A DNA stretch of 34,967 nt from a bacterium (GCA_018656485.1 JABIAA010000075.1:1-34967); one strand, 5' to 3'. Numbered from the stretch's first letter, positions 11,583-26,519 are shown. The notes: generated by a model from the sequence alone, not told the origin. Translations and numbers: made by a program.

Positions 11583-12443
11583 ATGAAATATTTTTTAAAT
11601 TTCACAATAGCAGCAATCGTAATGAGCGGACTTTGTAGCCAAGATTTATGCGCGCGCATTTCTGTTCACGACTTCAAGAGTTCTTTCTCGGATGGCAAAA
11701 CACGGAGAGATATTACGGTTTTTTCCAACACCACCGTCGCCGAAATTCACGATGCAATATCAAGCAAAAAAGACGTCTCTGGCGAAACATCGATTCCCAA
11801 AGAAATCCATGTAACAATTTACGATGGTGGCTCTACTGCCTTCTTTAATTTCATAGAAAAATCCCCACGGCTTGCCAAAATTCGACCATATTGGCTTCAT
11901 CTTCAGGATGATAAACTGCAGGTTATTCCCGACGAAATCGCTTTGATAGAAAAACTTCACATGCTCACAATTCACACAAGAAAACCGCTTTTGGAAATCA
12001 ACCCACTCATCGGAAATTTACAATTCCTCAAATCCTTAGACCTCCCTCTTTCATGCCGCCTTCCTCTCCCTGCAACTCTAAGAAAAAAAATTGAAGATGG
12101 GTTCGACTCATTTTCCCTCTCCGTATCCCTTGGCACAGCATTTTTCACAGACACAAAAACAGTAAGCATTAACCTAACTGATGGAGTTGCACGAATGCGC
12201 TGCGACGGATGTATTGGAGGTTTTTTGAAAACCAAAGGTGAAGCTGCATCTGCAAACATAGTCGGTTTCCTCTACCACGCCCTACCAGGTTCAAAAACGG
12301 CGCACCTTAACGGCGTCATTGATTCCCTAGAAGATATGCTAAACGGCTCCGATGCAGCCGTAATTTGCAATGGTTCGGTTGGTGCTCCCGAGTATGATGA
12401 AGTAGACGAACTCGTCTACCAAATGTCAAAAAACAACAAATGA
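11583..12443 (+). CDS. Family D secreted protein, member D1 (diverged core)
   Basis: GAAGGAG RBS and signal peptide MKYFLNFTIAAIVMSGLCS. It has the SPRLAKI segment, LRR-like LQVIPDEIALIEKLHMLTI...IGNLQFLKSLDL, and the core LPATLRKKIEDGFDSFSL...FF...INLTDGVARMRCDG. Confidence 0.8.
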   Translation: MKYFLNFTIAAIVMSGLCSQDLCARISVHDFKSSFSDGKTRRDITVFSNTTVAEIHDAISSKKDVSGETSIPKEIHVTIYDGGSTAFFNFIEKSPRLAKIRPYWLHLQDDKLQVIPDEIALIEKLHMLTIHTRKPLLEINPLIGNLQFLKSLDLPLSCRLPLPATLRKKIEDGFDSFSLSVSLGTAFFTDTKTVSINLTDGVARMRCDGCIGGFLKTKGEAASANIVGFLYHALPGSKTAHLNGVIDSLEDMLNGSDAAVICNGSVGAPEYDEVDELVYQMSKNNK

Positions 12444-12495
12444 CACGAAGAATCTAAATCGGTAACTCAGGAAAAAAAACCATGTAGGGGAAGAC

Positions 12496-13221
12496 ATGAA
12501 ATTTAATTTGAAAATTGTGTTGGCACTTTTTGTCGCAACTTGTTCAAACTCCACCATGACCAACGATGGAAGCTCTTTCACATTCACAAAAGATATGACA
12601 ATTCAAACATTGGAGCATGTCGGGAAATGGAATAATGTATCGCGATTAATTTTGGATGCACCATGCCCGGGACTTCCGGAATCTTGGAGAGAAAGAATCT
12701 GTACTCCTGAAAGTAAATTCTATCTGTGTGCCAGCCTTGAGCCAATATTCTTTTACAAAAAAAACAACGAGCCGGTATGCGCATTTGTTAACTTTACAAA
12801 CGGACCGGGAAAAATTGAATGCAATGGAGAAATCTACAATGTATTCTTGCCTGGTGCACAGGGAATATCGCTGGAAGCCAGAGAAAAAAATAGGCGTGCA
12901 TTTGAAACAGGATTTAAAAATTCTCCGAAGAAAGATTTATTTGATCTAGTTGCAACCTACGCAGACGACTGTCTTATAATCCCCGAATTGTTGGACAGCG
13001 AAAGAATCCCATGGCTAGTCACAAACCGACTGTCTAACCTGCAAAAAGAAAGACTGTCCAAGTTGCAAAATGAAAGTCGATGCAACCTCCGCGGAATGGA
13101 ATGCGTCGAAAATGGACATCTATTTTTGCCGTTTATCAAGATCCAACACGGTCGGCTACGGCGACTTCCCATGTATATCAATGGGGCGCAGTATTCAATC
13201 GGATCAACCCCAATCGAGTAA
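12496..13221 (+). CDS. Family D secreted protein, member D2 (short N-terminal region, no clear HPxLA/LRR module)
   Basis: Leader MKFNLKIVLALFVATC. The core is LPESWRERICTPESKFYL...EPIFFYKKNNEPVCAFVNFTNGPGKIECNGEIY. The C-terminal CNLRGMECVENG segment matches D3. Confidence 0.8.
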   Translation: MKFNLKIVLALFVATCSNSTMTNDGSSFTFTKDMTIQTLEHVGKWNNVSRLILDAPCPGLPESWRERICTPESKFYLCASLEPIFFYKKNNEPVCAFVNFTNGPGKIECNGEIYNVFLPGAQGISLEAREKNRRAFETGFKNSPKKDLFDLVATYADDCLIIPELLDSERIPWLVTNRLSNLQKERLSKLQNESRCNLRGMECVENGHLFLPFIKIQHGRLRRLPMYINGAQYSIGSTPIE

Positions 13222-13444
13222 AGCAAACCGAAACGCAGTAAGTTAAATAATGCTGAGGCTTGCCGATGCAAAATAAAATTGAGTGAAACGAGATTAAATA
13301 ATGCTGAGGCTTGCCCGATGCAAAACAAAGTTGACGACTTAAAAAGGAGTCGACTAAATAAAACTGAGCAACGCGAGGTTAAACACTGAGAGCCTAGCGA
13401 ACAGAAATAAAACTGAGTGTAACTGGGTAAAGGCTCAGCCTTCC
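13222..13444. repeat. Spacer repeat cluster (partial copy of the element at 24529-24983)
   Basis: It holds degenerate tandem units containing TTAAATAATGCTGAGGCTTGCC(C)GATGCAAAA twice. The 45-nt word at 13229-13273 matches 24624-24668 at 44/45. The word at 13271-13301 matches 24591-24621 at 30/31. The terminal GGGTAAAGGCTCAGCCTTCC (13425-13444) is identical to 24964-24983. Confidence 0.8.
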
Positions 13445-13445
13445 T

Positions 13446-13486
13446 TTCACAAAAGATTTTTTTGTGGTTATGCTTCGGGAACCTGA
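13446..13486 (+). promoter_or_regulatory. Candidate promoter TTCACA-N17-TATGCT / conserved word upstream of D3
   Basis: -35 at 13446-13451 and -10 at 13469-13474. The word GTTATGCTTCGGGAAC is at 13467-13482, 30 nt before the GTG start. Confidence 0.4.
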
Positions 13487-13512
13487 AATAGAAAATTAAC
13501 CGGATTAAAGAC

Positions 13513-14427
13513 GTGAAATTTAATTTAAAACTATCATCAACGACTCTCGCAATTTTCTTTGTCTGCACAGGTTGCATCGCAGTGAAACGGCACAATGAAG
13601 GCCCCAACGAACAACAAGCACAACCCAAAAAAAAGTGTTCCGAAAAAGACACCACAAAAGAAAAAAACAAACCCGGAACTCCGCACATTCTTGTCAAGGA
13701 TGGTGAGTCAGACATCCTTTTTGAAAGCGCAAAACAACACCCCGACATTGCAAAGAAAATTGCCACGCTGATATTTAACGATCATCTCCTAAAAACAATC
13801 CCTGATGAGATCTCGTTATTCACAAACCTTAAAACACTCGTAATCAAAACAGCACACTGTGAGCCAATCGAAATAAGCGAATCGGTCGGACTCCTGCCAC
13901 AACTTTCACAACTTTGTGTAAACGCACCATGCATAGTGTTGCCAGAAACACTTCGAGAAAAAGTGTGTACCCCTGGAAGCAACTTCAATCTACAAGTCCG
14001 TATTGGCCCCGCATTTTTTTTCAAAGATGGAACAAATCCAACGTGCGCACTTGTCAATTTTAGCAGAGGACCGGGTAAATTTTTGTGCAACGGACAGATC
14101 TATAAATTATTTATGTGCCAGACAAAAAAAGACAACGCGTTAGCATTTTTATTTGGGGTAAAAGTCTCACAAATCTTTGGTGAATATCACAATAAGATAC
14201 TAGCCCAAAATCCATCCGAGTGGCTCAAATATTTTCCAATAAGCCAGGAAAATCTGTGGTGCGGAATATCCGGAATCGAATGCGTCGCTCAAGAAAACTT
14301 CGCCGGTTCATTAATCGCCGTAAAACAAGGAACGCTGTACAGTGTCCCATCATCAGGAAAACATTACGTATTTAATAACTGCGGAAAGCTTGAACCAATA
14401 GAAACATTTGTTAAACAAATATCATGA
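13513..14427 (+). CDS. Family D secreted protein, member D3
   Basis: GTG start with leader MKFNLKLSSTTLAIFFVCTGC. It has QHPDIAKKIATLIF and LKTIPDEISLFTNLKTLVI...VGLLPQLSQLCV. The core is LPETLREKVCTPGSNFNLQVRIGPAFFFKDGTNPTCALVNFSRGPGKFLCNGQIY (13939-14100). Confidence 0.85.
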   Translation: MKFNLKLSSTTLAIFFVCTGCIAVKRHNEGPNEQQAQPKKKCSEKDTTKEKNKPGTPHILVKDGESDILFESAKQHPDIAKKIATLIFNDHLLKTIPDEISLFTNLKTLVIKTAHCEPIEISESVGLLPQLSQLCVNAPCIVLPETLREKVCTPGSNFNLQVRIGPAFFFKDGTNPTCALVNFSRGPGKFLCNGQIYKLFMCQTKKDNALAFLFGVKVSQIFGEYHNKILAQNPSEWLKYFPISQENLWCGISGIECVAQENFAGSLIAVKQGTLYSVPSSGKHYVFNNCGKLEPIETFVKQIS

Positions 14428-14454
14428 CGAAAAGGTCAGTAACAAAGCTACAGG

Positions 14455-14496
14455 TTGTGCAGACAAAATGAACCTGTTATGCTTCGGTAACTTAAG
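14455..14496 (+). promoter_or_regulatory. Candidate promoter TTGTGC-N17-TATGCT / conserved word upstream of D4
   Basis: -35 at 14455-14460 and -10 at 14478-14483. The word GTTATGCTTCGGTAAC is at 14476-14491, 26 nt before the GTG start. Confidence 0.35.
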
Positions 14497-14517
14497 GTAA
14501 AAAACGGGATAAAAAGC

Positions 14518-15204
14518 GTGAAACTAAACTTAAAAATTGCAATCGCTGGAGCCATAATCTTCATGGCTTTCGGACAAAAATTAACCGCAAAAATAACAGT
14601 CGGTTCCACTTTCGGAAACTGCCACTCTTTTATCGTCGGGGATGATACAACTATTGAGGATTTGGAAAACACATTTGCCAATCTTCCAGAAAATAAAAAA
14701 GCGGATATCATCACCAATAGTCCCAATAATCTAGTGGTATTTGACTTTATACGACAACACCCAGGACAAGCACAAAAAATTGCAATCCTTTCATTCCAAA
14801 AGGAGCTATCGGAAATTCCTGAAGAAATCGCGTTGTGCACAAACCTTGCGGCATTCGTTGCACACGACTATCACGGCGAAGAAATTGATCGGCTTTCACA
14901 GCTAGACAATTTACTGCTGCTTTTTGTTGACAGTAAAACCCCAAGATCCGTGCTTGCCCTCCCAACTGACGTTGTCGATAAAGTACATGAAAAGGACCCT
15001 TCCGCTTTCTGCACACAGGGAAAAAGCATGGTCCACTTCAATCTATTTAATAACACCGCAAGAAACCTCACAACCCATGGACCACTCATTTGCAACCCAC
15101 AGAAATTTACTGAATGGAAAAAGGCACAAAAGAACCCCCGGAAAGCAAAACGCTTAGCAATGCCCGACGGAATAATGAGAAAAATGAAAATTTCTTTTTC
15201 TTAA
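14518..15204 (+). CDS. Family D secreted protein, member D4 (diverged core)
   Basis: GTG start with leader MKLNLKIAIAGAIIFMAFG. It has QHPGQAQKIAILSF and LSEIPEEIALCTNLAAFV. The degenerate core is LPTDVVDKVHEKDPSAF...HFNLFNN...HGPLICN. Confidence 0.75.
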   Translation: MKLNLKIAIAGAIIFMAFGQKLTAKITVGSTFGNCHSFIVGDDTTIEDLENTFANLPENKKADIITNSPNNLVVFDFIRQHPGQAQKIAILSFQKELSEIPEEIALCTNLAAFVAHDYHGEEIDRLSQLDNLLLLFVDSKTPRSVLALPTDVVDKVHEKDPSAFCTQGKSMVHFNLFNNTARNLTTHGPLICNPQKFTEWKKAQKNPRKAKRLAMPDGIMRKMKISFS

Positions 15205-15284
15205 AAAGCACTTAACAACTTTGTGGATCTAAACACTTTTGAACAAACCCAAATGCCAAACCACATAAAAATAAAAGAAAGCCA

Positions 15285-16223
15285 ATGAAAAACAAATTTA
15301 AAATTGCCCTCACTTTTGTTGTCGCAGCAGGTCTCGCTAGCCACAATCTAAACTCAACCGCAGCACACGAAGAAACGATCGAAGCTGAAAAAGTTAAACT
15401 TGAATTAGTCGAACAAGGCAACAACCTCTTTGCAATTAAAATAACGATAATGAAAGGTGCAACAACAGAGGAAATCGTTAAAAGCCTTAAAGAGGCGGTC
15501 GAAGCTCCAGCAAACCAAAGAGCAAAAATCAATGTGGAGCTCCATCACTGGAACAATAACACCAAGCCTTTCTACGAAGCGGCCAGGCAACACCCCGAAT
15601 TAGCAGCCCAAATAGACTCCCTAACACCACCTTGGAGCAATGTTAACATAAGACCGGAAATCAGATTTTTTACAAAGCTTACAGAACTCAGAGGCTGGGT
15701 CGATGATGAAACAGTCCCAGAAGGAGTCGGAAAACTTCCAAACCTTCAATCGCTCACATTGGGCGGAAAAAAACTACAGTTCCTCCCAGAAACATTGCGT
15801 AAAAAAATCTGTTCTCGTAAAAGTAAATTTAAATTGTACATCTATTCATCAGACGCAACGTATTGCGACGCTACACGTTATACCCACAAACCCAACGATG
15901 TCCGCGCCGACTATAGAATCGTCCATATGATTAAATTCGAAAATGGTATCCCCGGAATGATCGCCTGCGAAGCAGAAATTAGAGACATAGACGTAGATGA
16001 TCCTGATGCAGAAGTTGCAAAAAATCTCACAACCTCAGCCAATGTCGGAGCAAATCCAGTCATGGTTAAAGCCGCGACACAACACATGATTCGAACTATT
16101 GTGAGAAAATACATTTGCGACCGAAGTCGCGGATACCAATTACTGCCATACGCAAACTCACAATGGGCTACTGCGTATATTTCACCCCAAAACACTTCGA
16201 CCGCATGCTGTTCTTTAATGTAA
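15285..16223 (+). CDS. Family D secreted protein, member D5
   Basis: Leader MKNKFKIALTFVVAAGLASHNLNS, then QHPELAAQIDSL. The core is LPETLRKKICSRKSKFKLYIYSSDATYCD...MIKFENGIPGMIACEAEI. Its closest relative is the adjacent D6. Confidence 0.85.
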   Translation: MKNKFKIALTFVVAAGLASHNLNSTAAHEETIEAEKVKLELVEQGNNLFAIKITIMKGATTEEIVKSLKEAVEAPANQRAKINVELHHWNNNTKPFYEAARQHPELAAQIDSLTPPWSNVNIRPEIRFFTKLTELRGWVDDETVPEGVGKLPNLQSLTLGGKKLQFLPETLRKKICSRKSKFKLYIYSSDATYCDATRYTHKPNDVRADYRIVHMIKFENGIPGMIACEAEIRDIDVDDPDAEVAKNLTTSANVGANPVMVKAATQHMIRTIVRKYICDRSRGYQLLPYANSQWATAYISPQNTSTACCSLM

Positions 16224-16234
16224 GGGAAAAATCA

Positions 16235-17134
16235 ATGCACAATAAATTGAAATTTATTTTTGTCTTGGCTATTGCCACAGGACTCAACAATTGTAATCTT
16301 AATTCAACTGTCGCCGGCGAATGTGTTGAACTTAAATATAACGAAGTCGGCTGCTACGACTACAATACAGAGATTATACTACACGATGGTTCAACAGCAC
16401 CGGAAATTATCGAAAAACTCAAAGAAGCAACAATACACCAAACCCTTTTTGGGTACAAGGTCATCATCACACTGGCTACACACCAGTGTGAATCTTTATA
16501 TGCAGCAGCAACAAAAAATCCAGTATTAGCATCCACCGTCGACGCAATTCAGGTTAACCGAAACTACAATTTTTACATCTCGCCAACAATTGGATTATTT
16601 ACAAGACTTACACACATTGTAAGCGAAACACCTCAAAGCACACTTCCAGAAGAAATTGGAATGCTCCCAAGGCTTTGCTCACTCGTATTGCGAGGACAAA
16701 ATCTAAAGTATTTTCCAGACACCTTGCGGAAAAAGATATGCTCACATGGAAGTTCTTTTTTTATGGATATAAATTCATCCGACGCAACGTATTGCGACCT
16801 TAATGAAAACAACCAACCCGTCCACATGATCAAATTTAAAAACGGCCCCCCTGGAGTAATTCTCTGTGCTACAATAATGCGAAAAATAAATTGTATCCAT
16901 CCGAACGAAGAAGTTGCAAAAAATATCGCCACGTCACAAGGCCTTGCAAAGTCATTCACCGTAGAATCCGCAACAAGAAAAATGATTTCCAAAATAGCAC
17001 CCGAAGAAACGTATAAAAAAGAAAGTACTGTGGAGCAGGCCTATAACAAGAAACATGGCATTGTGGATATTAATAACCCATTTTCCTGCATACACTACGT
17101 CGAACCGGACACTCGTTTAGAAAGAATAAAATGA
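16235..17134 (+). CDS. Family D secreted protein, member D6
   Basis: I chose the ATG at 16235 (AAGGGA RBS, 12 nt after the D5 stop), which gives leader MHNKLKFIFVLAIATGLNNCNLNS. The longer 16115 ORF would overlap D5. The core is FPDTLRKKICSHGSSFFMDINSSDATYCD...MIKFKNGPPGVILC. Confidence 0.85.
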   Translation: MHNKLKFIFVLAIATGLNNCNLNSTVAGECVELKYNEVGCYDYNTEIILHDGSTAPEIIEKLKEATIHQTLFGYKVIITLATHQCESLYAAATKNPVLASTVDAIQVNRNYNFYISPTIGLFTRLTHIVSETPQSTLPEEIGMLPRLCSLVLRGQNLKYFPDTLRKKICSHGSSFFMDINSSDATYCDLNENNQPVHMIKFKNGPPGVILCATIMRKINCIHPNEEVAKNIATSQGLAKSFTVESATRKMISKIAPEETYKKESTVEQAYNKKHGIVDINNPFSCIHYVEPDTRLERIK

Positions 17135-17907
17135 AAGATAAATTTAAAATTGCGCTCACCATAGCAATTTCCGCAGGACCATTGATCCACGGTATGGGAA
17201 ATGAGTTTTTCACTCTTGATGATGGAATATCAAAACCAATAATAAGAAAAAATGTCCCACTTCGTGAAATATTTGAAATCGTCGGCGGAGATGTCGATTT
17301 TGCAAAAACAGTCATCGATCTTCGACTGCAGGATGATAACCTGGAAGTTGTTCCAGATGAAATCGGCAACTTCGAAAATCTAGAACGGCTTTTGATTCTC
17401 AAGTCCAGCAGCACTGCCCCAATAAAAATAAGTGAAAAAATTGGAAAGCTCAAAACGTTGAAAGAACTAGTTATTCAACGACACTGCCCCGTTCTTCCAA
17501 AATCTCTTCGAGAAAAAATTTGTACACCAGGAAGTACGTTCAACTTGTATGTAAATCTCGAACCAGCATTCTTCTACAAAGAAAAAGGTGGGCCGACATC
17601 CGCATTCGTAAACTTTACAAACGGACCGGGAAGGTTCGAATGCAATGGAACAATTTATCGCGCCTTCATGAAAGGACCTTTGGAAGAAAGCTTGAGGGCT
17701 TTCACAACAGGCACAAAAATTTCCTGTGATGCAAAAACCGATGTCGTCAACGACAATGCTTCCGCGGGAATACAACATGTCAACAACCGTGGTTGTCCAA
17801 TGCATCCTGACATGTACATAAAACAAGGGCAGCTCTTCTTTCTTCCGGATTTATCGTGGGAACAAAAAAAACAATTTGGACGCCCACAGCTCACCCAAAT
17901 AAAATAA
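17131..17907 (+). CDS. Family D secreted protein, member D7
   Basis: Its start overlaps the D6 stop (ATGA, 17131-17134). Leader MKDKFKIALTIAISAG and LEVVPDEIGNFENLERLLI are present. The core is LPKSLREKICTPGSTFNLYVNLEPAFFYKEKGGPTSAFVNFTNGPGRFECNGTIY (17494-17658). Confidence 0.85.
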   Translation: MKDKFKIALTIAISAGPLIHGMGNEFFTLDDGISKPIIRKNVPLREIFEIVGGDVDFAKTVIDLRLQDDNLEVVPDEIGNFENLERLLILKSSSTAPIKISEKIGKLKTLKELVIQRHCPVLPKSLREKICTPGSTFNLYVNLEPAFFYKEKGGPTSAFVNFTNGPGRFECNGTIYRAFMKGPLEESLRAFTTGTKISCDAKTDVVNDNASAGIQHVNNRGCPMHPDMYIKQGQLFFLPDLSWEQKKQFGRPQLTQIK

Positions 17908-17987
17908 TAAATACACAAAATGAATTGTGTTTAACTTGCACAAATCATTTTAACGGAGCGACTCATCTAAAAACCAGGGCAAACTCA

Positions 17988-18893
17988 ATGAAAACAAAAT
18001 TCAAAATTGCGGCTTTCGTTTTAGCATTTTTTCCCGCATCGTCATCGCAGGCATACATCGAATTAAATGAAAAAAAATACGATTGCCACTACGACCTGCG
18101 CAACCCAGCAAACCTTCCAGCAAACATTGAGGAAATAATTGGTGCAATGGAAAGATTTCAATCACCGAGCATAACACTCCACGACAACTCTTCAGAGGTA
18201 TTTTTTGACTTACTAACACAGCGCCCCGATCTCGCAGCAAAAATTGAAAAAATAATTATCGAAGATGACAACTTAACACATGTGCTTGATTCAATTGGAT
18301 TCTGCTCAAATCTTCGGACTTTACACATTTATTCAGAAAGCCTCATTCACATCAGCGAGCAACTTGGGAACATCCATTCTCTTGAAAATCTATGTATAAC
18401 TGGAAGCCAAGATTTCAAATTCCTGCCATCATCCCTACGCAGGAAAATCTGCAACCAAGATGGGTATTTGAATTTTTGGTTGGACTTCAAAGTCGTGTAC
18501 TTTGATTTCGACGAAAATGGAAATCGCGTTGCCATGGTTAATTTTGCGGATGGGGCAGGAAGAAAAATGTGTAACGACGATGGCGATGGTGATATCAAAA
18601 ATGTTCCACTTGACATACAATTCGCAATTGAAGAAAATCGAAACACATTTTATCGTGGGGTTATCGCGTGGGCAGAGTCACACAACGCTCACAAACTGAT
18701 GGAGGCAGCAGAGACAATGCTACTTTCAAACATCGTAGATCATGCCGCAACACTTAGACAGATGCCAGAGGAGATTCAACAGATTTTAGATTGCGCTGGA
18801 CGAGATGAAGCAATGAGATCGATAATCAGTAACGGCGAAGTTCAACATGGATGTGTATGCATTGGTGATGATTCTTCCTTCATGATTTTTTAG
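17988..18893 (+). CDS. Family D secreted protein, member D8
   Basis: I chose the ATG at 17988, giving leader MKTKFKIAAFVLAFFPASSSQA; the 17856 ORF start overlaps D7. It has QRPDLAAKIEKIII and the core LPSSLRRKICNQDGYLNFWLDF...MVNFADGAGRKMCNDDGDGD. It is collinear end-to-end with D13. Confidence 0.85.
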   Translation: MKTKFKIAAFVLAFFPASSSQAYIELNEKKYDCHYDLRNPANLPANIEEIIGAMERFQSPSITLHDNSSEVFFDLLTQRPDLAAKIEKIIIEDDNLTHVLDSIGFCSNLRTLHIYSESLIHISEQLGNIHSLENLCITGSQDFKFLPSSLRRKICNQDGYLNFWLDFKVVYFDFDENGNRVAMVNFADGAGRKMCNDDGDGDIKNVPLDIQFAIEENRNTFYRGVIAWAESHNAHKLMEAAETMLLSNIVDHAATLRQMPEEIQQILDCAGRDEAMRSIISNGEVQHGCVCIGDDSSFMIF

Positions 18894-19927: not shown

Positions 19928-20857
19928 ATGAAACAACAATCAAAATTAATTCTTGTTTCAATCATCGCATGCACGACAGTCAGCTGCAGCGCAAATTGGA
20001 TTTCCAGCGTTTCATTTGAAGAAAGAAACAACATTGCTTTTCAAAATCCAGAGCGCAACCAATTCCATTGGTCATCGTACGATAATCTAAAAAAGATCTT
20101 TCAGAGTGCCCAAGAATCGGCTGTCGCATCTAGGCCAATAATCCATGTGTCGGTCAATCTTTCTGGAGATCTAAAGGCTTTGTACACATTCGCAAAAGAT
20201 CACCCTGAGATTGCCGCAACAGTCACAAAGTTATCATTACGAATGACCGATCTAAAAATAGTTCCCGACGAAATTGCACTGTTCAAAAATCTAAAAGAAC
20301 TATCCATGGATCGGACAGAGTTGCCTGTTGAACTCAGCGAAGAAGTCGGCAATATAAAAACCCTTTCAAAACTCCTACTTCTCTCCAACGCACCAGTCAT
20401 GAGCCTCCCAGAATCGTTAAGAAAAAAAGTTTGCACGCCTGGAAGTAAATTTCATCTTACTGTAAGATTTGGAACCGTTTTTTTCTTATGTCCCAATAAT
20501 GCCAAGATCGTTTCTTTGGTAAATTTTACAAATAGACCTGGCGTCGTTTATTGTAATGCAACTGTATTTGGAATACATATGCATAATCACGGGAAAGAGG
20601 CATTCAACTTGGGTGTCCAACTATCTGCAGCTCACCAAAGCCTATACAAGTTGACGTCACAATACATACACACAAAACGCCTCCTTCAAGTCGCACAACG
20701 CGCAGAGCTTCCAAAAAGCGTCCAAAAAAAAATGCAATCCTTCACACTGACAAATGAAGATCGAAAAAGTTGTACCCGTGGAATGCTTATTGCTGAAAAC
20801 CTACAAAAAAATACCCAGCGCCACTGGATCCAGATTAGACAGGGATTTTTGACATAG
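19928..20857 (+). CDS. Family D secreted protein (possible lipoprotein), member D10
   Basis: The leader MKQQSKLILVSIIAC is lipobox-like (I-I-A-C). It has DHPEIAATVTKLSL and LKIVPDEIALFKNLKELSM. The core is LPESLRKKVCTPGSKFHLTVRFGTVFF...LVNFTNRPGVVYCNATVF (20405-20569). Confidence 0.85.
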   Translation: MKQQSKLILVSIIACTTVSCSANWISSVSFEERNNIAFQNPERNQFHWSSYDNLKKIFQSAQESAVASRPIIHVSVNLSGDLKALYTFAKDHPEIAATVTKLSLRMTDLKIVPDEIALFKNLKELSMDRTELPVELSEEVGNIKTLSKLLLLSNAPVMSLPESLRKKVCTPGSKFHLTVRFGTVFFLCPNNAKIVSLVNFTNRPGVVYCNATVFGIHMHNHGKEAFNLGVQLSAAHQSLYKLTSQYIHTKRLLQVAQRAELPKSVQKKMQSFTLTNEDRKSCTRGMLIAENLQKNTQRHWIQIRQGFLT

Positions 20858-20886
20858 ACTGTAGCTAAAAAAATGAAAGGAACAAA

Positions 20887-22302
20887 GTGCGACATTTTTT
20901 AAAATATGCTTTTTTCACTGCAATCGCAGGCACAACATTATACTGCAACACATCATCAATAACCAAGCCAATCTCAACAAAATTCCAACACGGAGTTGTT
21001 AACCCAATCTGCGAATTTTCCAAACGGCTTACCACACGGCTAGAATCATCCGAGTGGCTCAATAAACAAAATCCTGACATTACAAAATACTTTAATTTTG
21101 CAAAATACTCATGGGACGAAAATTACAAAACGACTTCGTTTGTTCCGTACGTAGAAAAGCTTATTGTTGAACCAGAAACGAAGATTGTTGTTATCCCAGA
21201 TATCCACGGCAATGCCCGCTTTTACTACCGCGTCATGAAAGACCTTGTCGAGCGAAAAATAATTCGAAGAACTGACAATGGCTACCAAATTGCACAAGAA
21301 AACCTCTACTTCATTTTCCTAGGCGACTACGTTAACGCCCTCTTCGGCGGCGCAGAAATTCTTCTGAATGCAATACAACTTTCTAACAACAGCCCCGGTA
21401 AGGTTTTTCTTCTGCGCGGCAACCACGAAAACATCGGCTACTGGAATCCAATGTTCGCATCATACTGCCATGGCGAACTTGTAAGGTGGGAAGTTATGGA
21501 AAGATTCTCCGCGCCTTCCTACGCAGATGCCAACAAATTTTTCTATACATACGATCTTCTCTCACTCACCATGTATCTTGGATGCAAGAACACAAACGGA
21601 AGCACGGATTTTTTACAAATCAGCCACTCCAACTTTGAAGTCGGATACAACGCAAAAGATTTCTTGGACAGTACTTCCCAATTTCACTTTTTAGAAAGAT
21701 TCGATCGCCCAGGAATGCTTGCGCAGCTGCCACTTTCTGAAGAATTGCAAAGAAAAAAAGATGGCATCGAACCTTGGGGCTTCGTAGAGAAACTTAAGGG
21801 AATTCATCTGCTTTGCGAAGACCTCCAACCAGAAGATTTTGTCGGAACCAACTATCAGTTTGGTGGCTTTGTTGGGTGCGGAGATTTTTTGGATTCAGAC
21901 CCTGGCTGGGATGAAGGACTCGGGGACGGAATTTCTATTTCCAAGAAAACAGCCAAACACCCGCACAGAGCCGTTCCGGTGTGGGGAGAAAAGGCAACCA
22001 AAAGATTTCTCGATCTTAACAGCTCTAGTAAAAATATCCTTCGCGGAATTATCCGAGGACACCAACACGGCAATCACGAAAAAATCTACCGAACACATGG
22101 CTTTATGCCGCAATGGAATGGGACCGTCACGACCCTCGCATCAGCATCAACATTTCCTCGGGACAACGGCGATTACACGTACTTCATAATCACAACGAAA
22201 AACTCGTACCGAGAGTGGACAATTGAACACAACTGGGTTACAGTCCGGCAAGCTCCTGTGAACGTTTTTTCGCGGGCAACACACAAACTTTGGGAAACAT
22301 AG
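20887..22302 (+). CDS. PPP-family (calcineurin-like) metallophosphatase with N-terminal hydrophobic leader
   Basis: GTG start 5 nt after AAAGGA, with leader MRHFLKYAFFTAIAGTTLYC. The PPP motifs appear in order: VVIPDIHGN (GDxHG-like), FLGDYVN (GDxVDRG-like), LLRGNHEN (GNHE) and IIRGHQHG (RGH). Confidence 0.85.
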   Translation: MRHFLKYAFFTAIAGTTLYCNTSSITKPISTKFQHGVVNPICEFSKRLTTRLESSEWLNKQNPDITKYFNFAKYSWDENYKTTSFVPYVEKLIVEPETKIVVIPDIHGNARFYYRVMKDLVERKIIRRTDNGYQIAQENLYFIFLGDYVNALFGGAEILLNAIQLSNNSPGKVFLLRGNHENIGYWNPMFASYCHGELVRWEVMERFSAPSYADANKFFYTYDLLSLTMYLGCKNTNGSTDFLQISHSNFEVGYNAKDFLDSTSQFHFLERFDRPGMLAQLPLSEELQRKKDGIEPWGFVEKLKGIHLLCEDLQPEDFVGTNYQFGGFVGCGDFLDSDPGWDEGLGDGISISKKTAKHPHRAVPVWGEKATKRFLDLNSSSKNILRGIIRGHQHGNHEKIYRTHGFMPQWNGTVTTLASASTFPRDNGDYTYFIITTKNSYREWTIEHNWVTVRQAPVNVFSRATHKLWET

Positions 22303-22333
22303 AAACAATAAAATTTTTTGGGGAAGCAACACG

Positions 22334-23140
22334 ATGAAACATTTCACAAAATTTGCACTAGCGCTCGCACTGACAACTGGTTTTGTTTGTCACAATTCAA
22401 CCGCACGCGTGATAGTTCTTTGCGAGGGCAATGGCTACGTAAATCTAAATATTTACGCAGACGCAACAGAGGAGCAACTTCGCCAAGAGTTTGAAAAAAG
22501 ACCAGACGTCAAAGAAGTACATGTCAATTATTACGACAACGGAGTCGAATTTTTGGACTTCGTAAAAAGACACCCTCACCTCGCAACCAAGATTACCGAA
22601 ATCAACTCGGGCAATTATTCAATCAAAAAGCCAGGGCTAATCACGCTATGTGAACATTGCAAAAATCTCACGAGCCTAGAGATTAACGTCGATGATGAAA
22701 CCATCCCAGAAGAAGTTGGTGAACTTTCATGCCTCAAATCACTCGAAATTGGTGGAGAAAGCACAAGATATTTACCAGAATCACTGCGAGCCAAAGTCTG
22801 CACACAATTTAGCAACTTTTTTTTGGGCATCGATCACCGTGGCCCTGCGTACTTCGACATGTTCGAGTTTAGACCAATTGCCACGATCAATTTTAAAAAT
22901 GGAACCGGCAGATTTTTTTGCAATGGCAGCATTGAAGGAATCGAAAGAAATCTCAAAAAAGCCATCGAAATAAATTTTCGCGCAGCACTCTTTCACAAAC
23001 CAAGGACCTTTAAAAGAGAAGGTATCGACCTTGCAATGCAAACGATAAGCCACGGCCTAGAAAGCACCACCATACGAATCGAAGCTGGAAGCGCTTTGAA
23101 CATAATCCCACAGAACACTCTGGGAGCTTTGATTGGGTAA
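22334..23140 (+). CDS. Family D secreted protein, member D11
   Basis: Leader MKHFTKFALALALTTGFVCHNS, then RHPHLATKITEI. The core is LPESLRAKVCTQFSNFFLGIDHRGPAYF...TINFKNGTGRFFCNGSI. Confidence 0.85.
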   Translation: MKHFTKFALALALTTGFVCHNSTARVIVLCEGNGYVNLNIYADATEEQLRQEFEKRPDVKEVHVNYYDNGVEFLDFVKRHPHLATKITEINSGNYSIKKPGLITLCEHCKNLTSLEINVDDETIPEEVGELSCLKSLEIGGESTRYLPESLRAKVCTQFSNFFLGIDHRGPAYFDMFEFRPIATINFKNGTGRFFCNGSIEGIERNLKKAIEINFRAALFHKPRTFKREGIDLAMQTISHGLESTTIRIEAGSALNIIPQNTLGALIG

Positions 23141-23147
23141 ACCCGTC

Positions 23148-23213
23148 ACTGGGTTCAGTATGGTAAGCCCTGTGCACGAATTTTATAGAACAACACAAAA
23201 ACTTTGGAAAAAC
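23148..23213 (+). pseudogene. Relic of a phosphatase-gene 3' end
   Basis: My hand alignment to 22232-22298 (the last ~22 codons of the 20887-22302 gene) gives 51 matches over 66 aligned columns with 2 single-base gaps. The translation VSPVHEFYRTTQKLWKN compares with RQAPVNVFSRATHKLWET. Confidence 0.55.
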
Positions 23214-23572
23214 GGGCTAAACCCGCCTGCGTACAGCCACAAGCAAGCTTGGGCTTGGCCCGACCAACACGACATTCGAAAAATAACTTCTTCTATTGCA
23301 ACTTACAAAACTGGCGGGATCCTGTCCGCGACTCCAACGAGCTCCTCGCTCGATTAAAAAATTAGAAAATTTGCAAAACCAATTCCGCGGGAAAAATCAT
23401 ACAAGTTTTTGTTGCTGTAATCCTCCGAACAACGAAAGCAGGAAAGCGGCGGTTTTCGCTTTACACTCAGTATGTTTTTGTTACACTTCATAAAATCAGA
23501 AATTCGGAACTCTAAAAAAAATAAACCCCTTGAAGGTCACAAATGATTTTTATCTGTTAGTTAGGAAATATT

Positions 23573-24520
23573 ATGAAAAACAAATCAATATTGATATCCA
23601 CACTCGCAACCATCGCACTAACAATTTGCAGCAACTCCAGTGGAGCATCCGAACTTTTTCTTGAGTACAGGACACCCCACCATCGCAGCGCAACCTCTCC
23701 ATTCGAATGGTCCAACAAAGAAGAACTTCTGGAGTTGTTCAATGTTGAGGTTCTTGAAAATGGAAAGCGAGTCGAGATAGTTCACATAACAAAGCCTGAA
23801 GACTGCAAAACTTTTTTCGAAGTTGTAGACGAAAATAAGGCTCTTGCAGAACAAACCAAGAAGTTGTTGGTAAATCACGATGAGGCGATAATAATTCCAC
23901 ATACAATTTACAAATGCAGCAACCTCGAATGGTTGTGTTTGACGACATCAGATGTAGTCAAAATGCACCCAATGATCGTAATGCTCAATAAACTGAAATC
24001 CCTATGGATATCAGCATCCAACAGACAAATTTTTCCATCGACATTTAGGCACAAGCTCTGTTCCGCACATTCAACTTTATCCACAGAATTCAATTTTGAA
24101 ACCGCACACTTCTCAATGAGCGATGATGGCGAAGTTTCCGCACAGGTAAACTTTAATAACGGGCCTGGCGAAGTAAAATGTAAAGCAGAAATCCACGGAA
24201 TCCCCGAAGACATCGACGAGTTCATCACGAAGAACGCTCTCGCGCATCTACCGACAACACTTGTAGAATTTATGATCAGAAGATTTCACTCAAACAATGA
24301 GTTGCCGAACAAAGCATTTGAATCCGGAATTCCGACAACACTGCACCAAAGCATACAAAGAGGATGCTCTGCCAAACGCAAACGAGACAGCGCAAAAACA
24401 GTTACAGAGATAAATAAAAAACAGCTGGTTAAAGAAATGTGGAACTTAGCACACGATAGAGTTTTCGACCGCAGGGTAAAAATTAGAAACGGGGAAATCG
24501 TCCAAGCACCTGCGGAGTGA
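23573..24520 (+). CDS. Family D secreted protein, member D12
   Basis: Leader MKNKSILISTLATIALTICSN. It has ENKALAEQTKKLLV and the core FPSTFRHKLCSAHSTLSTEFNFETAHF...QVNFNNGPGEVKCKAEI. Confidence 0.85.
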   Translation: MKNKSILISTLATIALTICSNSSGASELFLEYRTPHHRSATSPFEWSNKEELLELFNVEVLENGKRVEIVHITKPEDCKTFFEVVDENKALAEQTKKLLVNHDEAIIIPHTIYKCSNLEWLCLTTSDVVKMHPMIVMLNKLKSLWISASNRQIFPSTFRHKLCSAHSTLSTEFNFETAHFSMSDDGEVSAQVNFNNGPGEVKCKAEIHGIPEDIDEFITKNALAHLPTTLVEFMIRRFHSNNELPNKAFESGIPTTLHQSIQRGCSAKRKRDSAKTVTEINKKQLVKEMWNLAHDRVFDRRVKIRNGEIVQAPAE

Positions 24521-24528
24521 CTCCGCTA

Positions 24529-24983
24529 GGAAGGCTGAGCCTTCACCCATCAAGCACACACAAAATTTATCTATCGATTTGGAAGTGACAAAATAAAATT
24601 GAGTGTAACGAGATTAAATAAAACGAAACGCAGTGAGTTAAATAATGCTGAGGCTTGCCGATGCAAAACATGGGGAGTGCCGCTCTCTTTCCGTTGGTCA
24701 GAGAATTTTTATAAAAAAATCTGACAATCGCATTATGCAAATTAGAAATTAAATAAAACTGAACGCAGTGAGGTTAAATAAAATAAAACGACCATGGGGA
24801 GTTAAACTGAACGCAGTGAGGAAGGGGAGAACTCATTACATTTGTTGTGTTGCAAGGCGGCAAACAAATTTAGCGGATTGCTCGATGCTTGGGTTCCCTT
24901 GGAAAATGACCATATTTTTGGAGCTTGTTCTTTAGAATGTAAATCACCTGGACAGCTTGCTGCGGGTAAAGGCTCAGCCTTCC
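24529..24983. repeat. Non-coding repeat element bounded by 20-bp inverted repeats (MITE-like)
   Basis: The left end is GGAAGGCTGAGCCTTCACCC (24529-24548). The right end is GGGTAAAGGCTCAGCCTTCC (24964-24983). Its reverse complement matches the left end at 19/20. The interior carries the same TTAAATAA / TGCTGAGGCTTGCCGATGCAAAA / AACGCAGTGAG words as 13222-13444. There is no credible ORF inside. Confidence 0.6.
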
Positions 24984-25135
24984 TGACCTACAGCCGACAT
25001 AAAACGGCGCTTTTGGCCTAAAAATCAAGTTTTTCTTTCACAATTGGATATTTGAAAAAAACCGGCTACATTACTAATCCACACATTGAATAAACATGAA
25101 AATGTAAAATTCAACCTCAAAACAAGGTTTTTCAA

Positions 25136-26083
25136 ATGAAAAAAAATGCACTCGTAATACTTGCGACAATAATCCTCGCGTCACATTCAAATGCCAAAAT
25201 TAAAAGTGAGTACGGATCAATCGACATTTTTGGACCAACAAACTTAGATGAAATAACCCAAACCCTTCAAAACGAACCTGAAAGAAGTGGGGTTATAGTC
25301 AATTTATTTAATAATACTGCAGAAACATTTTTTAGAGCCGTAGCGGAAGTTAATCCAGAATGGGTCAAGAACATATATACAATCTACATTTCTGATGATG
25401 AACTGGTAACAATCCCAGATTCAATCGGCAAGCTTCAAGCACTCTATGTTATGACAGTTTCCTCAGAAAAATTGCAATCCATAAGCGAAGAAATTGGAAA
25501 CATTGATGAACTTACATATTTAACAATTACAGACAGCCCCCAATTTAAATACCTTCCAGAGTCATTGCGCCCCAAAATATGTAGCGAACAGGCATTTTTC
25601 AATTTGTGGCTAGATTTCGGAGTTGCACACTTCAGCCTTAATGAAGATGGCCGCCTTGTCTACAGGGTAAACTTTATTAACGGTCCAGGAAAAAAGAGAT
25701 GTGACGACAATGGAGAATGCGACGTTAAAGGATTTTATGGCCCATTCTTCAATCCCAATCTCAACATAGAAAAAAACAATGAAACGTTTTATAACGGGGT
25801 TATTGCGGCAACTAGAGGTTACGAAGAGCAACAAGAATTACACCAGGCCGCACAAACAATGTTAGATACCGAGCCAAGCCATAGAGATGAAGTCCTTCAG
25901 TCAATGCCAGCACCAATCGCAGTCGCCCTTAACACTGACCGGCAAGAAGAAGCAATCCGGTGTATCGTGGATAATAACATGATCGAACAAGAAGGCCTCA
26001 AAGACAATTGTTTTTTAGACATCTCAAATAACGAGGATGTTCCATTCTCACAGTTCATTCACCACAATTTTATTAACCAATAA
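25136..26083 (+). CDS. Family D secreted protein, member D13
   Basis: Leader MKKNALVILATIILASHSNA and LVTIPDSIGKLQALYVMTV are present. The core is LPESLRPKICSEQAFFNLWLDF...RVNFINGPGKKRCDDNGECD. It is collinear with D8, including the C-terminal region. Confidence 0.85.
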   Translation: MKKNALVILATIILASHSNAKIKSEYGSIDIFGPTNLDEITQTLQNEPERSGVIVNLFNNTAETFFRAVAEVNPEWVKNIYTIYISDDELVTIPDSIGKLQALYVMTVSSEKLQSISEEIGNIDELTYLTITDSPQFKYLPESLRPKICSEQAFFNLWLDFGVAHFSLNEDGRLVYRVNFINGPGKKRCDDNGECDVKGFYGPFFNPNLNIEKNNETFYNGVIAATRGYEEQQELHQAAQTMLDTEPSHRDEVLQSMPAPIAVALNTDRQEEAIRCIVDNNMIEQEGLKDNCFLDISNNEDVPFSQFIHHNFINQ

Positions 26084-26102
26084 GTTTTACAAGAGATTCC
26101 AA

Positions 26103-26519
26103 ATGAAAAACAAATCAATTTTTATATCCACACTCGCAACCATCGCACTCACAATTTGCAGCAACATGTCCACCAATGCAGCAACAATCGAACTTCATTG
26201 CATCAGCCCCGCAGGACAAATAATCTCCTGGGAAGAAAAATGGTCAACTGACTTTGAGCTCATCGAAATAATAAAAGTAGAGGTCTTAAAAAACCACCGA
26301 AGTGTCGGAGCGGTTGTTGTAGAAAATCAGCAAGAGTACGACGCGATCAACAACATCTTAGAAGAAGCAAGTCGTGCAAACCAACCGATCCAAGGCGAAA
26401 TTATAATTTATAAAAGCGAGTCAGCTACAACAACAGAAATTACAAATCTCAGAAAGCGAAAAGATTGGTCTGGAAATGAAGGATCCAACGAACTTCGCAA
26501 CATCCGCAGAAAATTTTAG
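26103..26519 (+). CDS. Family D N-terminal-module-only paralogue (D14, truncated)
   Basis: I chose the ATG at 26103; the 26037 ORF start overlaps D13. The first 63 nt match the D12 start at 60/63. The downstream sequence aligns weakly to the D12 N-terminal domain (EVLxNxxxV). The LRR-like units and the Cys core are absent. Confidence 0.65.
   Translation: MKNKSIFISTLATIALTICSNMSTNAATIELHCISPAGQIISWEEKWSTDFELIEIIKVEVLKNHRSVGAVVVENQQEYDAINNILEEASRANQPIQGEIIIYKSESATTTEITNLRKRKDWSGNEGSNELRNIRRKF

Follow-up and report, generated by a model that had tools for sequence, protein, structure and literature searches.

Results

Positions 11583-26519 of the window (by which we mean the whole 34,967-nucleotide stretch of bacterial DNA analysed) carry, on the plus strand, a head-to-tail array of 13 intact paralogous genes (D1 to D13) and one N-terminal fragment (D14), here termed family D; open reading frames and alignments confirm the gene count, orientation and shared architecture proposed in a first-pass annotation of the sequence. 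That architecture comprises a leader, an N-terminal variable domain, a cap with an HPxLA motif, LRR units, a Cys-bearing core and a C-terminal region, and the alignments recover it across the full-length copies with the exception of D2, which lacks the N-domain, the cap and the first LRR. The array is broken up by one metallophosphatase gene and three non-coding spacers, with short dispersed repeats in the long spacers. Gaps had been put at -4 to a few hundred nt, which holds for most intergenic distances (-4 to 615 nt) but not for the D10-D11 interval of 1476 nt, which contains the foreign gene.

Most copies are canonical: D3 (13513-14427; 304 aa, GTG start), D5 (15285-16223; 312 aa, its core lengthened by an 11-residue insertion), D7 (17131-17907; 258 aa, the shortest canonical member and the copy modelled below), D8 (17988-18893; 301 aa), D9 (18925-19857; 310 aa, canonical except for Asp at the first core Cys, with an acidic C-terminal tail), D10 (19928-20857; 309 aa), D11 (22334-23140; 268 aa, short C-terminus), D12 (23573-24520; 315 aa, with the motif variant FPSTFRHKLC) and D13 (25136-26083; 315 aa). 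The start of D6 (16235-17134; 299 aa) was set at a family-type ATG (MHNKLKF...) at 16235, the mechanical open reading frame beginning at 16115; the last 4 nt of D6 are also the first of D7, and the D6 protein is identical to database protein P0009. D5 and D6 are sisters (E=5e-46), as are D8 and D13 despite a distance of 6 kb (E=1e-45). The remaining copies depart further from the plan: D1 (11583-12443; 286 aa) has all parts and a degenerate core, with INLTDG replacing VNFxNG (leave-one-out HMM E=1e-33); in D2 (12496-13221; 241 aa) hardly anything separates the signal peptide from the last LRR, which is followed by the core and the C-terminal region, and the family HMM matches at positions 119-292 only (leave-one-out 1e-27); D4 (14518-15204; 228 aa) keeps the signal peptide, N-domain, cap and LRR, with a degenerate core and a short C-terminus (leave-one-out E=6e-15); and D14 (26103-26519; 138 aa) is truncated to the signal peptide and N-domain (leave-one-out 7e-4), being closest to D12 (E=9e-10), with 95% identity over the first 63 nt. 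An upstream element, TTCACA-N17-TATGCTTCGGTAAC, precedes D1 (11519-11555, plus strand); D3 has a further copy ahead of it (13446-13482) and D4 a partial one (14475-14491), giving 3 matches against 0 in shuffled sequences. The element looks promoter-like, and its positions suggest that the duplication unit may have brought its own regulatory region along.

The gene embedded between D10 and D11 (20887-22302, plus strand; 471 aa) is not a family D member but a predicted calcineurin-like metallophosphoesterase (PF00149, E=2e-10) with a signal-peptide-like N-terminus. It contains GDxHG and GNHE motifs, with GDYVNA where GDxVDRG would be expected, and resembles PPP enzymes weakly (BSU1 and calcineurin; only 19 bits). 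Because it shares the strand of its neighbours and is separated from D10, upstream, by 29 nt and from D11, downstream, by 31 nt, co-transcription with the D genes is likely, making it a candidate exported enzyme co-expressed with the array.

All named best matches of MnmG are Candidatus Dependentiae or Babeliales (55-60% identity), and HerA shares 69% identity with its counterpart in the Dependentiae MAG GCA_018817025.1, which has the same HerA-OmpH-Pth neighbourhood with two additional genes between OmpH and Pth; these similarities assign the window to an uncultured Dependentiae (TM6) bacterium. The array's own neighbours are the envelope and housekeeping genes OmpH/Skp, Pth and HerA, and in two relatives a secretin gene adjoins gidA. 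No family D relatives outside the contig were found in 185,579 species genomes, JGI metagenomes or neighbouring Dependentiae loci, in searches of which the sole exhaustive one, with the family profile, returned an overwhelming number of LRR proteins, and those by word index missed most of the window's own paralogues.

Export leaders were assessed with our own heuristic for n-region, h-region and cleavage site, using Pth and HerA as cytoplasmic controls. In each of the 14 copies the n-region is rich in K/R and the h-region is hydrophobic, and most have a small-x-small cleavage site, which upholds the earlier proposal of secretion-competent leaders throughout; in D7 the predicted signal peptide (17131-17199, plus strand; approximately aa 1-23) runs from MKDKFK through a hydrophobic stretch to GMG, with pLDDT<50 over aa 1-34. 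Eight of the 14 copies have a Cys at residues 14-23 (binomial P=0.003), as do 10 of the window's 16 other leader-bearing proteins (P=9e-6). In family D this Cys mostly follows non-canonical residues (L, T, N, V, I), and a textbook lipobox (IIAC) occurs in D10 and no other copy; D4, D5, D7, D8, D9 and D13 have no leader-end Cys and instead show AxA-type cleavage sites. Mature parts contain 4-11 Cys per full-length copy (n=13) and 1 in the truncated D14, with none in Pth and OmpH.

An AlphaFold2 model of D7 (pLDDT 75-96 over aa 41-130) shows a helical cap (aa 44-60) followed by three LRR rungs (cap and rungs together at 17260-17538, plus strand) and a fourth strand. Beta strands lie at aa 63-66, 86-89 and 112-118, the rungs are 23, 26 and 26 aa long, and each has an ascending segment of the form (I/L)-P/S-x-x-(I/L), namely IPDEI, ISEKI and LPKSL; the two LRR-like units first described are thus three in the model. 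Foldseek returned LRR proteins as its sole matches, headed in the PDB by Leptospira LIC12234, Rsu1 and SHOC2 and in BFVD by giant-virus LRR proteins. The SHOC2-PP1 complexes in the Foldseek list reflect the shared LRR fold only. Family profile positions 89-153 match thousands of multi-LRR proteins, in up to 43 stretches each, and the profile also picks up two upstream genes of the window that encode canonical LRRs, whereas no Pfam LRR model exceeded its gathering threshold for family D (best 17.9 bits versus 40). On the model, the profile matches and the repeat pattern, the scaffold is predicted to be a true short LRR solenoid of three rungs, so that a protein at first regarded as unrecognised in its entirety is, by profile matches and Foldseek, a short LRR protein.

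The Cys core (in D7, 17494-17655, plus strand; aa 122-175, by AlphaFold2 and alignment) proved to be composite. In the model, aa 122-136 supply LRR3 with its helical half and turn, with Cys131 within the LRR3 helix, and aa 137-175 form the fourth strand and a beta-meander bearing FF, VNFTNGPG and Cys171. The core had been described as belonging to no named family; its first 16 or so residues (LPxSLRxKIC and the following turn) in fact finish the third LRR, but the description stands for the approximately 45 residues that remain after LRR3 (F..FF..VNFxNGPGxxxC), which matched nothing in Pfam, NCBIfam or PDB sequences or by fold. This module looks like a family-specific, Cys-bearing C-terminal cap, modelled at pLDDT 65-82 within D7 and 58.6 alone. 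Of the reported features of the core, the two conserved Cys hold in most copies, the first being absent from D1 and D9, and the degeneration of the core in D1 and D4 is evident from the alignment, the core HMM finding no core in D4.

Conservation is concentrated in this scaffold, with mean BLOSUM62 pair scores of 1.53 in the core (the highest), 1.13 in the HPxLA cap and 0.95 in the LRR, versus 0.12 in the N-terminal variable domain and 0.02 at the C-terminus, in agreement with the picture of a conserved scaffold with diversified termini. The C-terminal region is as variable as was claimed but has motifs of its own: AFxxG after the core, and h-x-h-(K/R)-(Q/N)-G-x-h near the end of D2, D3, D7, D9, D10 and D12 and, more weakly, D8. 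The pI ranges from 4.4 to 9.7 across copies.

Pairwise identity within the family is 16-36%, with all copies significantly related. At E<1e-3 (BLASTP, nominal database size 1e9), each full-length copy except D4 has 3-11 paralogue partners and D14 has one, D12; a degenerate DNA pattern with fixed spacing (P-x-[ST]-L-R-x-[KR]-h ... N-F-x-[ND]-G) found 6 copies versus 0 in 100 shuffles. Synonymous sites are saturated (pS 0.64-0.82), and pN (0.39-0.50) is lower than pS in every pair tested; the 13 frames of 228-315 codons are still open despite this divergence, and the conserved alignment positions are structural residues (L, P, G, C, F). Given the low identity and synonymous saturation, the copies are ancient, contrary to the recent expansion hinted at by the earlier wording 'amplified 14-fold'. 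No phase-variation or recombination signature was found in the array, in which the D12/D14 leader is the only long shared DNA repeat. Misassembly is excluded by two further assemblies from different samples, which match the window at 99.99-100% across the 7.8-14.9 kb covered, and by a contig from a third sample encoding an identical D7 protein.

Discussion

Dependentiae are obligate intracellular parasites of protists, and in the cultured Chromulinavorax 44% of CDS have signal peptides, with an ORFan-rich secretome and Sec export (PMC6561590); TM6 core genomes retain type II secretion components, including two gspD copies, and TM6 LRR, ANK, WD40 and F-box proteins have been interpreted as host-interaction factors (PMC4776705). 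Given such a lifestyle, secretomes so rich in signal peptides and ORFans, and this interpretation of repeat proteins, an effector, adhesin or surface repertoire is the natural reading of family D, its function being inferred, and the family most likely belongs to the protist-host interaction toolkit. We favour, at a probability of about 0.58, an ancient birth-and-death repertoire of exported, perhaps partly lipid-anchored LRR binding proteins for host interaction. Under this model, the lineage-specific family would have arisen by repeated tandem duplication long ago and then been kept by selection. Each copy would be made with a Sec signal peptide and pass the inner membrane; about half may be cleaved and lipid-anchored at the leader-end Cys, and the others released, presumably through the type II secretin conserved in the phylum or in outer-membrane vesicles. 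Once mature, the protein would be a rigid three-rung LRR solenoid between the helical HPxLA cap and a family-specific beta-sheet cap, the latter with the motifs FF and VNFxNGPG and, probably, a Cys-Cys disulfide. With this solenoid as a binding platform, and with the non-scaffold surface, the N-terminal alpha/beta domain, the C-terminal region and pI differing from copy to copy, the array would encode some twelve binding specificities; their targets would most plausibly be proteins or surfaces of the protist host, bound while the bacterium is taken up and grows inside the cell.

It is possible, if rather unlikely, that the proteins instead form a surface-anchored lipoprotein or adhesin repertoire, acting on the outer surface in attachment to and uptake by different protists, or in surface variation, and not as soluble effectors inside the host. 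The excess of leader Cys in family D and its neighbours and the D10 lipobox are consistent with anchoring; the nearest structural matches are Leptospira LRR proteins, many of which are predicted lipoproteins, and the small internalins are an analogous adhesin/invasin repertoire. However, the six copies with AxA-type sites and no leader Cys, the mostly non-canonical residues before the Cys in the others, the window's silence on lgt, lspA or a surface-lipoprotein export route in this genome, and the array's low identity and missing phase-variation or recombination signature argue against this reading.

A periplasmic or envelope role unrelated to the host, for example in envelope assembly or as nutrient-capture binding modules, seems improbable. 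A Sec leader proves inner-membrane passage only, leaders sit on almost every window gene and so do not by themselves mark effectors, and the neighbouring genes serve the envelope and housekeeping. Yet envelope proteins with housekeeping roles are as a rule shared by the whole of a phylum, whereas family D had no relatives in the genomes and metagenomes searched, and twelve-fold diversity of charge and of both ends suits changing external partners better.

We consider it very unlikely that the D proteins serve the embedded exported metallophosphatase as targeting or regulatory subunits, steering it to different substrates, as the eukaryotic LRR proteins SHOC2 and SDS22 steer PP1. The enzyme's leader-like N-terminus, its close spacing to D10 and D11 and its weak PPP likeness fit such a role, but gene position is the sole basis for it, the GDYVNA substitution and the 19-bit score set the enzyme apart from PPP phosphatases, a three-rung solenoid falls far short of the LRR arcs seen in SHOC2 and SDS22, and we know of no bacterial precedent for one enzyme with 13 adaptors. 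That the whole array consists of decaying, functionless duplicates or arises from misassembly, as the truncated D14, the degenerate D1 and D4, the half-missing D2 and the spacer repeats might suggest, is effectively refuted by the open frames, pN < pS, conserved structural residues and matching assemblies.

Viewed as a host-interaction repertoire, family D is new, and such repertoires are already known in Dependentiae. The closest are the secretomes of Dependentiae such as Chromulinavorax destructans and Babela massiliensis, from the same phylum as the window by MnmG and HerA, with Sec leaders on eukaryote-type repeat proteins and lineage-specific ORFans read as host-manipulation factors (PMC6561590, PMC4776705). 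The expansions described there are mostly of ankyrin-repeat proteins, with LRR proteins just mentioned, and we found no description of family D, its Cys-bearing cap or the 14-gene tandem layout in that literature (PMC6561590, PMC4776705). The best structural matches, Leptospira LIC12234, LIC10831, LIC11098 and LSS11580 (E=2e-3, probability 1.0; 21-26% identity over ~100 residues, with a query-normalised TM-score of just 0.28), are likewise exported, with many paralogues, in a host-associated diderm bacterium; they consist almost wholly of canonical 23-residue LRRs passing Pfam thresholds, whereas family D has only three degenerate rungs with non-LRR N- and C-terminal modules. Listeria internalins are tandem-clustered paralogues that bind host proteins, and the small ones (InlC class) resemble family D in size (~300 aa) and in order, with a signal peptide, a helical cap, a short LRR solenoid and a beta-rich domain fused straight onto the last repeat; InlB and InlC also occur among the weak Foldseek matches. 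However, internalins have six or more regular 22-residue rungs versus three irregular ones of 23-26 residues, Pfam Internalin_N and LRR_adjacent do not match family D, the internalin alignments reach TM-scores of only ~0.2 with rmsd >10 A, and the organism is a diderm unrelated to Listeria. The only named bacterial families to score (NCBIfam) were the Xanthomonas type III effectors XopL, XopAE and XopAC, over the LRR segment (10-27 bits versus cut-offs of 450-600); these are without Sec leaders, and their E3-ligase or Fic domains have no counterpart in family D. Beyond family D, nearly every other gene is also leader-bearing, and the 35-kb window is full of leader-bearing paralogue families.

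Array composition and age

Fourteen mutually alignable gene products lie between positions 11583 and 26519 of the plus strand (family D, copies D1 to D14 in order), within a run of plus-strand genes that is almost unbroken across the window. The 14-copy array proposed in the first-pass annotation was recovered as 13 full-length copies (D1–D13, 228–315 aa) and a short one (D14, 138 aa), but not as a continuous series, being interrupted by a metallophosphoesterase gene and non-coding spacers. D14 retains the signal peptide and N-terminal domain alone, with D12 as its nearest copy; D2 lacks the N-domain, the HPxLA cap and the first repeats; and the cores of D1 and D4 (the core being the LP(E/K/S)(S/T)LRxK(I/V)C ... 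FF ... VNFxNGPGxxxC segment, D7 residues 122–175) are degenerate, as first described, that of D4 going undetected by the core HMM. The mechanical ORFs of D6 and D8 begin upstream of the family-type ATG (16235 and 17988), from which the products are identical to the database proteins P0009 and P0006, respectively.

The paralogue relationship is not due to chance. At E < 1 × 10−3 (BLASTP, nominal database 1 × 10^9), each full-length copy except D4 had 3–11 paralogue partners and D14 had one (D12); leave-one-out HMMs recovered D1 (1 × 10−33), D2 (1 × 10−27), D4 (6 × 10−15) and D14 (7 × 10−4); and a degenerate DNA pattern of two core motifs at fixed spacing matched 6 copies, versus 0 in 100 shuffles. 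Nor is the array an assembly artefact, because two other assemblies, from different samples, were 99.99–100% identical to the window over the 7.8–14.9 kb covered, and an identical D7 protein recurred on a contig from a third sample. The only between-assembly differences seen were the substitution N225Y in D1 (database protein P0027) and, in ERZ27237584, a G-to-C SNP at the intergenic position 24893.

The array had also been described as amplified 14-fold, which cannot be read as recent: the copies are old, with pairwise identities of 16–36% and saturated synonymous sites (pS 0.64–0.82; dS above 1.4 or undefined). This saturation precludes a per-site selection test, so that only pN < pS, found in every pair, can be stated. 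Sister groupings (D5/D6, D8/D13, D12/D14 and D2/D3/D7/D10) were not always of adjacent copies, and 13 reading frames are still open. Judged by these divergence patterns, family D is an old birth-and-death family maintained by selection. As regards a possible horizontal-transfer island, the D genes have GC contents of 0.39–0.43 and GC3 of 0.36–0.44, slightly below those of the window's GidA, HerA and Pth genes and similar to those of OmpH, and skews are uniform across the window.

A short leucine-rich repeat solenoid

Sequence profiles assigned no D copy to an above-threshold family in Pfam or NCBIfam. The best Pfam leucine-rich repeat (LRR) scores were sub-threshold (LRR_14, 17.9 of the 40 bits required; LRR_8, 15.5 of 27), 6 copies out of 10 searched at E ≤ 1 had no Pfam LRR match, and D11 and D12 had none at E ≤ 0.001, the sole threshold used for both. 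The NCBIfam models of XopL, XopAE and XopAC matched the LRR region at 10–27 bits, against cut-offs of 450–600. An AlphaFold2 model of D7, built from the 13-paralogue alignment, had a mean pLDDT of 63, with residues 41–130 at 75–96, and placed beta strands at residues 63–66, 86–89, 112–118 and 138–142 with short helices between them, forming three rungs (of 23, 26 and 26 residues) and a fourth strand; a beta-meander comes next (147–178). With this model as Foldseek query, the best 30 PDB and best 20 BFVD matches were all LRR proteins, the former including Leptospira LIC12234, Rsu1, CCR4 and SHOC2 (best E = 2 × 10−3, probability up to 1.0) and the latter being giant-virus LRR proteins. The full-length family profile also matched the window's two canonical LRR genes (2632–3261 and 3595–4395). 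Thus defined structurally, by 20–30-residue strand/turn/helix rungs and an LxxLxL-type strand, the repeats are LRRs, although their scores fall short of the Pfam gathering cut-offs, and the model and profile matches together show the middle of the D proteins, as predicted, to be a genuine short LRR solenoid.

This solenoid extends into what had been described as a core of no recognised family. A common ascending segment recurs in the three modelled D7 rungs (IPDEI, ISEKIG and LPKSLR), and because all rungs carry this like segment, LP(E/K/S)(S/T)LRxK(I/V)C is read as the helical half of the third repeat (LRR3). The LPxSLRxKIC half of the core therefore belongs to LRR3, and about 45 residues of it are still unmatched.

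The contrast between a fixed scaffold and variable ends was borne out by the regional mean BLOSUM62 pair scores, which were highest in the core (1.53), followed by the HPxLA cap (1.13) and the LRR (0.95), and far lower in the N-variable domain (0.12) and the C-terminus (0.02). Although variability peaks in the C-terminal region, motifs recur there: AFxxG directly after the core in the family alignment, and h-x-h-(K/R)-(Q/N)-G-x-h near the C-terminus of D2, D3, D7, D9, D10 and D12, in a weaker form in D8.

A family-specific module after the third repeat

The residual module of about 45 residues (F-x-L-x-V ... FF ... VNFxNGPGxxxCNG) comprises the fourth strand and the beta-meander with FF, VNFxNGPG and the second Cys. 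Among 12 core-to-end segments searched against Pfam at E ≤ 10, no family matched more than one segment, and no PDB sequence matched the core profile even at E ≤ 10. Structure prediction from the core alone, a check suggested in the first-pass annotation, was too poor to inform (pLDDT 58.6, pTM 0.30), and a Foldseek search with that poor model, which returned nothing below E = 1, is not evidence of a new fold. In the full-length D7 model, the module is packed directly on the last rung; its conserved residues are of structural types (L, P, G, F, C and N), with no obvious catalytic set. From the model, we read the module as a cap, specific to this family, that would close the C-terminal end of the solenoid; a disulfide linking the LRR3-helix Cys to the one that follows GPG probably holds it in place. 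The two conserved Cys reported earlier are present as a pair, but the first is absent from D1 and D9 and one of the two sits inside the LRR3 helix. A eukaryote-type LRRCT does not describe the module, which has no recurrent Pfam match and two conserved Cys as opposed to the four-Cys pattern.

Predicted export and possible membrane anchoring

Leaders were scored with our own heuristic, based on the K/R count before a 10-residue window and the mean Kyte–Doolittle hydropathy of that window. All 14 copies have 1–3 K/R followed by a 10-residue hydrophobic stretch of mean hydropathy 1.9–3.2, most have a small-x-small site about 18–25 residues in, and D7 alone has an acidic residue (one) in the n- or h-region. 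The cytoplasmic control Pth scored 1.15, well below the D range, and the HerA control scored 1.74, its hydrophobic peak not coming until residue 17, behind a lead-in that is longer and, with 4 K/R, more basic. By this heuristic, the D proteins have predicted tripartite leaders of the Sec/SPase I type, which combine a basic n-region, an h-region of 10–15 hydrophobic residues and a small-x-small cleavage site. A Cys at residues 14–23, at the end of the h-region, occurs in 8 of the 14 copies (binomial P = 0.003, with the Cys frequency of the mature part as background) and in 10 of the 16 other leader-bearing proteins of the window (P = 9 × 10−6); the canonical lipobox [LVI][ASTVI][GAS]C was found in D10 only. 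Part of family D may accordingly be lipoproteins with a relaxed lipobox, and the other Cys-bearing leaders hint at widespread lipoproteins of this kind. Predicted pI of the mature D proteins ranges from 4.4 to 9.7.

Genomic context

For the truncated MnmG (GidA) with which the window opens, the best named matches (55–60% identity) are exclusively in Candidatus Dependentiae/Babeliales, and HerA and Pth are 69% and 52% identical, respectively, to those of the Dependentiae metagenome-assembled genome GCA_018817025.1. A block of HerA (DUF87), OmpH and Pth genes (8565–11460) has the same order in that genome (locus L015, 59–4905), where two extra genes, for a hexapeptide-repeat protein and a ribose-phosphate pyrophosphokinase-type protein, lie between OmpH and Pth; the D array starts directly after this conserved block. 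In two relatives (L015 and a second Dependentiae locus, L019), secretin (gspD-like) genes adjoin gidA. Scans of the window for tRNAs and Rfam families found none.

Outside gidA, herA and pth, nearly all genes in the window are leader-bearing, mostly in small paralogous families without Pfam matches: 1544–2494 with 4559–5332, 5422–6555 with 6648–7823, and seven paralogues between 27924 and 34843 with a common (L/I)PGI motif at the C-terminus, in addition to the two canonical LRR genes. Dependentiae have been described as obligate intracellular parasites of protists. For the cultured member Chromulinavorax destructans, signal peptides are reported on 44% of CDS and ORFans are over-represented in the predicted secretome; its export is ascribed to the Sec system, and outer-membrane vesicles were observed as well (PMC6561590). 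The core genome of TM6 retains components of type II secretion, gspD being present twice, and TM6 LRR, ankyrin, WD40 and F-box proteins have been interpreted as factors of host interaction (PMC4776705). What surrounds the array in the window fits this known secretome picture.

The 1,476-nt 'gap' between D10 and D11 is filled by a gene for a calcineurin-like metallophosphoesterase (20887–22302, plus strand, 471 aa; PF00149, E = 2 × 10−10), which begins 29 nt after D10 and ends 31 nt before D11. Its N-terminus resembles a signal peptide, and its motifs are GDxHG, GNHE and, where GDxVDRG is expected, GDYVNA. It resembles BSU1 and calcineurin, both PPP phosphatases, only weakly (E = 4 × 10−3 to 9 × 10−3), and nothing matched in NCBIfam. 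The product may be an exported eukaryote-like phosphatase effector.

Distribution

The full-length family profile matched 53,876 proteins in a library of 1.84 billion. The 150 matches listed were multi-LRR giants, 12 of the window's own proteins and the one-residue variant of D1, and the long proteins among them aligned at profile positions of about 89–153, in up to 43 stretches each. The LRR columns of the full-length query thus swamped the search, and weaker true relatives of the core may be hidden. Word-index protein searches with the core alignment and with D10 returned only the window's own proteins, and also missed most of its own paralogues, so that as negatives they carry little weight. 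Motif scans gave 22 pattern matches in GTDB species genomes and 343 in JGI metagenomes, none confirmed as a relative, and zero in IMG/VR; a hand-made two-motif DNA pattern gave 8 matches in JGI metagenomes, all with in-frame stops or in unrelated contexts. The fetched loci of related Dependentiae, which end before the array position, contained no D-like genes. PADLOC returned nothing, and PHROGs only an unnamed family, whose alignment covers the LRR segment in the member displayed. Within the reach of these searches, the collections held no relatives of family D outside this contig.

Interpretation

Family D is best read, with moderate confidence, much as first proposed: as a set of predicted exported proteins that would serve host interaction or a surface function. 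This reading is strengthened by the Dependentiae context. Members of this phylum are widespread, almost uncultured protist parasites; we know of no experimental work on how they manipulate their hosts. Likeness to known LRR systems is partial. Listeria internalins combine Internalin_N, regular 22-residue LRRs and an LRR-adjacent Ig-like inter-repeat domain, whereas family D has rungs of unequal length, a Foldseek TM of about 0.2 to internalins and no match to the internalin Pfam models at E ≤ 1. XopL, XopAE and XopAC are type III effectors without a Sec leader, whereas all D proteins have Sec-type leaders.

A more ambitious proposal is that the post-LRR3 module does more than cap the solenoid, being a new ligand-binding or catalytic fold that would define a new Dependentiae effector class and could work with the putative exported, PPP-like phosphatase of the array as LRR-targeted holoenzymes, a bacterial analogue of the LRR-targeted PP1 complexes SHOC2–PP1 and SDS22–PP1. 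We regard this proposal as very improbable. Polymorphic toxin or contact-dependent inhibition cassettes pair a conserved N-terminal delivery region with a variable C-terminal toxin domain and have a cognate immunity gene directly downstream; the array does not fit this pattern, with no toxin or immunity family found by Pfam, NCBIfam or PADLOC, no small ORF in most of the gaps (those of −4 to 90 nt) and a separate leader on each D copy.

As an exported host-interaction or surface repertoire, the array would offer a concrete candidate set: about a dozen putative exported LRR binders on one scaffold, together with a co-located, predicted exported phosphatase. What is new is family D and its putative cap module, a sequence family without a Pfam or PDB counterpart and a clean case of a secretome family that evolved long ago by birth and death within a reduced genome. 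That Dependentiae have diversified repertoires of Sec-exported repeat proteins was already known, and the view of the phylum is unchanged, large ORFan-rich, signal-peptide-bearing repertoires with eukaryote-type repeats being a known hallmark.

Spacers and minor features

Most intergenic gaps in the array measure −4 to 90 nt. Three spacers, of 291, 432 and 615 nt, lack coding sequence; in two (13222–13512 and 24521–25135) there are short dispersed repeats that matched nothing in Rfam: 13225–13273 matches 24620–24668 at 96% and 13269–13301 matches 24589–24621 at 97%, the unit AAATAAAAYTGARYG.AACGAGRTTAAATAA occurs 3 times in the window versus 0 in shuffles, and GGGTAAAGGCTCAGCCTTCC is present at 13426 and 24966. 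Candidate explanations are a small mobile element remnant, a regulatory repeat or a small RNA. A promoter-like element, TTCACA-N17-TATGCTTCGGTAAC, lies 30–65 nt upstream of D1 (11519–11555) and D3 (13446–13482), with a partial copy upstream of D4 (14475–14491), and is otherwise absent from the window. In the 63 nt at their 5′ ends, which encode the signal peptide, D12 (23573–23635) and D14 (26103–26165) are 95% identical, whereas protein identity beyond the leader is only about 34%; local gene conversion is one possible cause, strong constraint on the leader another.

An open frame at 3147–3503 (plus strand), 3′ of and overlapping the LRR gene at 2632–3261, aligns with the LRR portion of the D profile (E = 9 × 10−4); it could be either the remnant of an LRR gene or the continuation of that gene after a frameshift. 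The region's sole sizeable minus-strand gene (26621–27472), convergent with D14, encodes a 283-aa ORFan without a Pfam match, with a hydrophobic segment from about residue 14 that ends in a lipobox-like LQSC.
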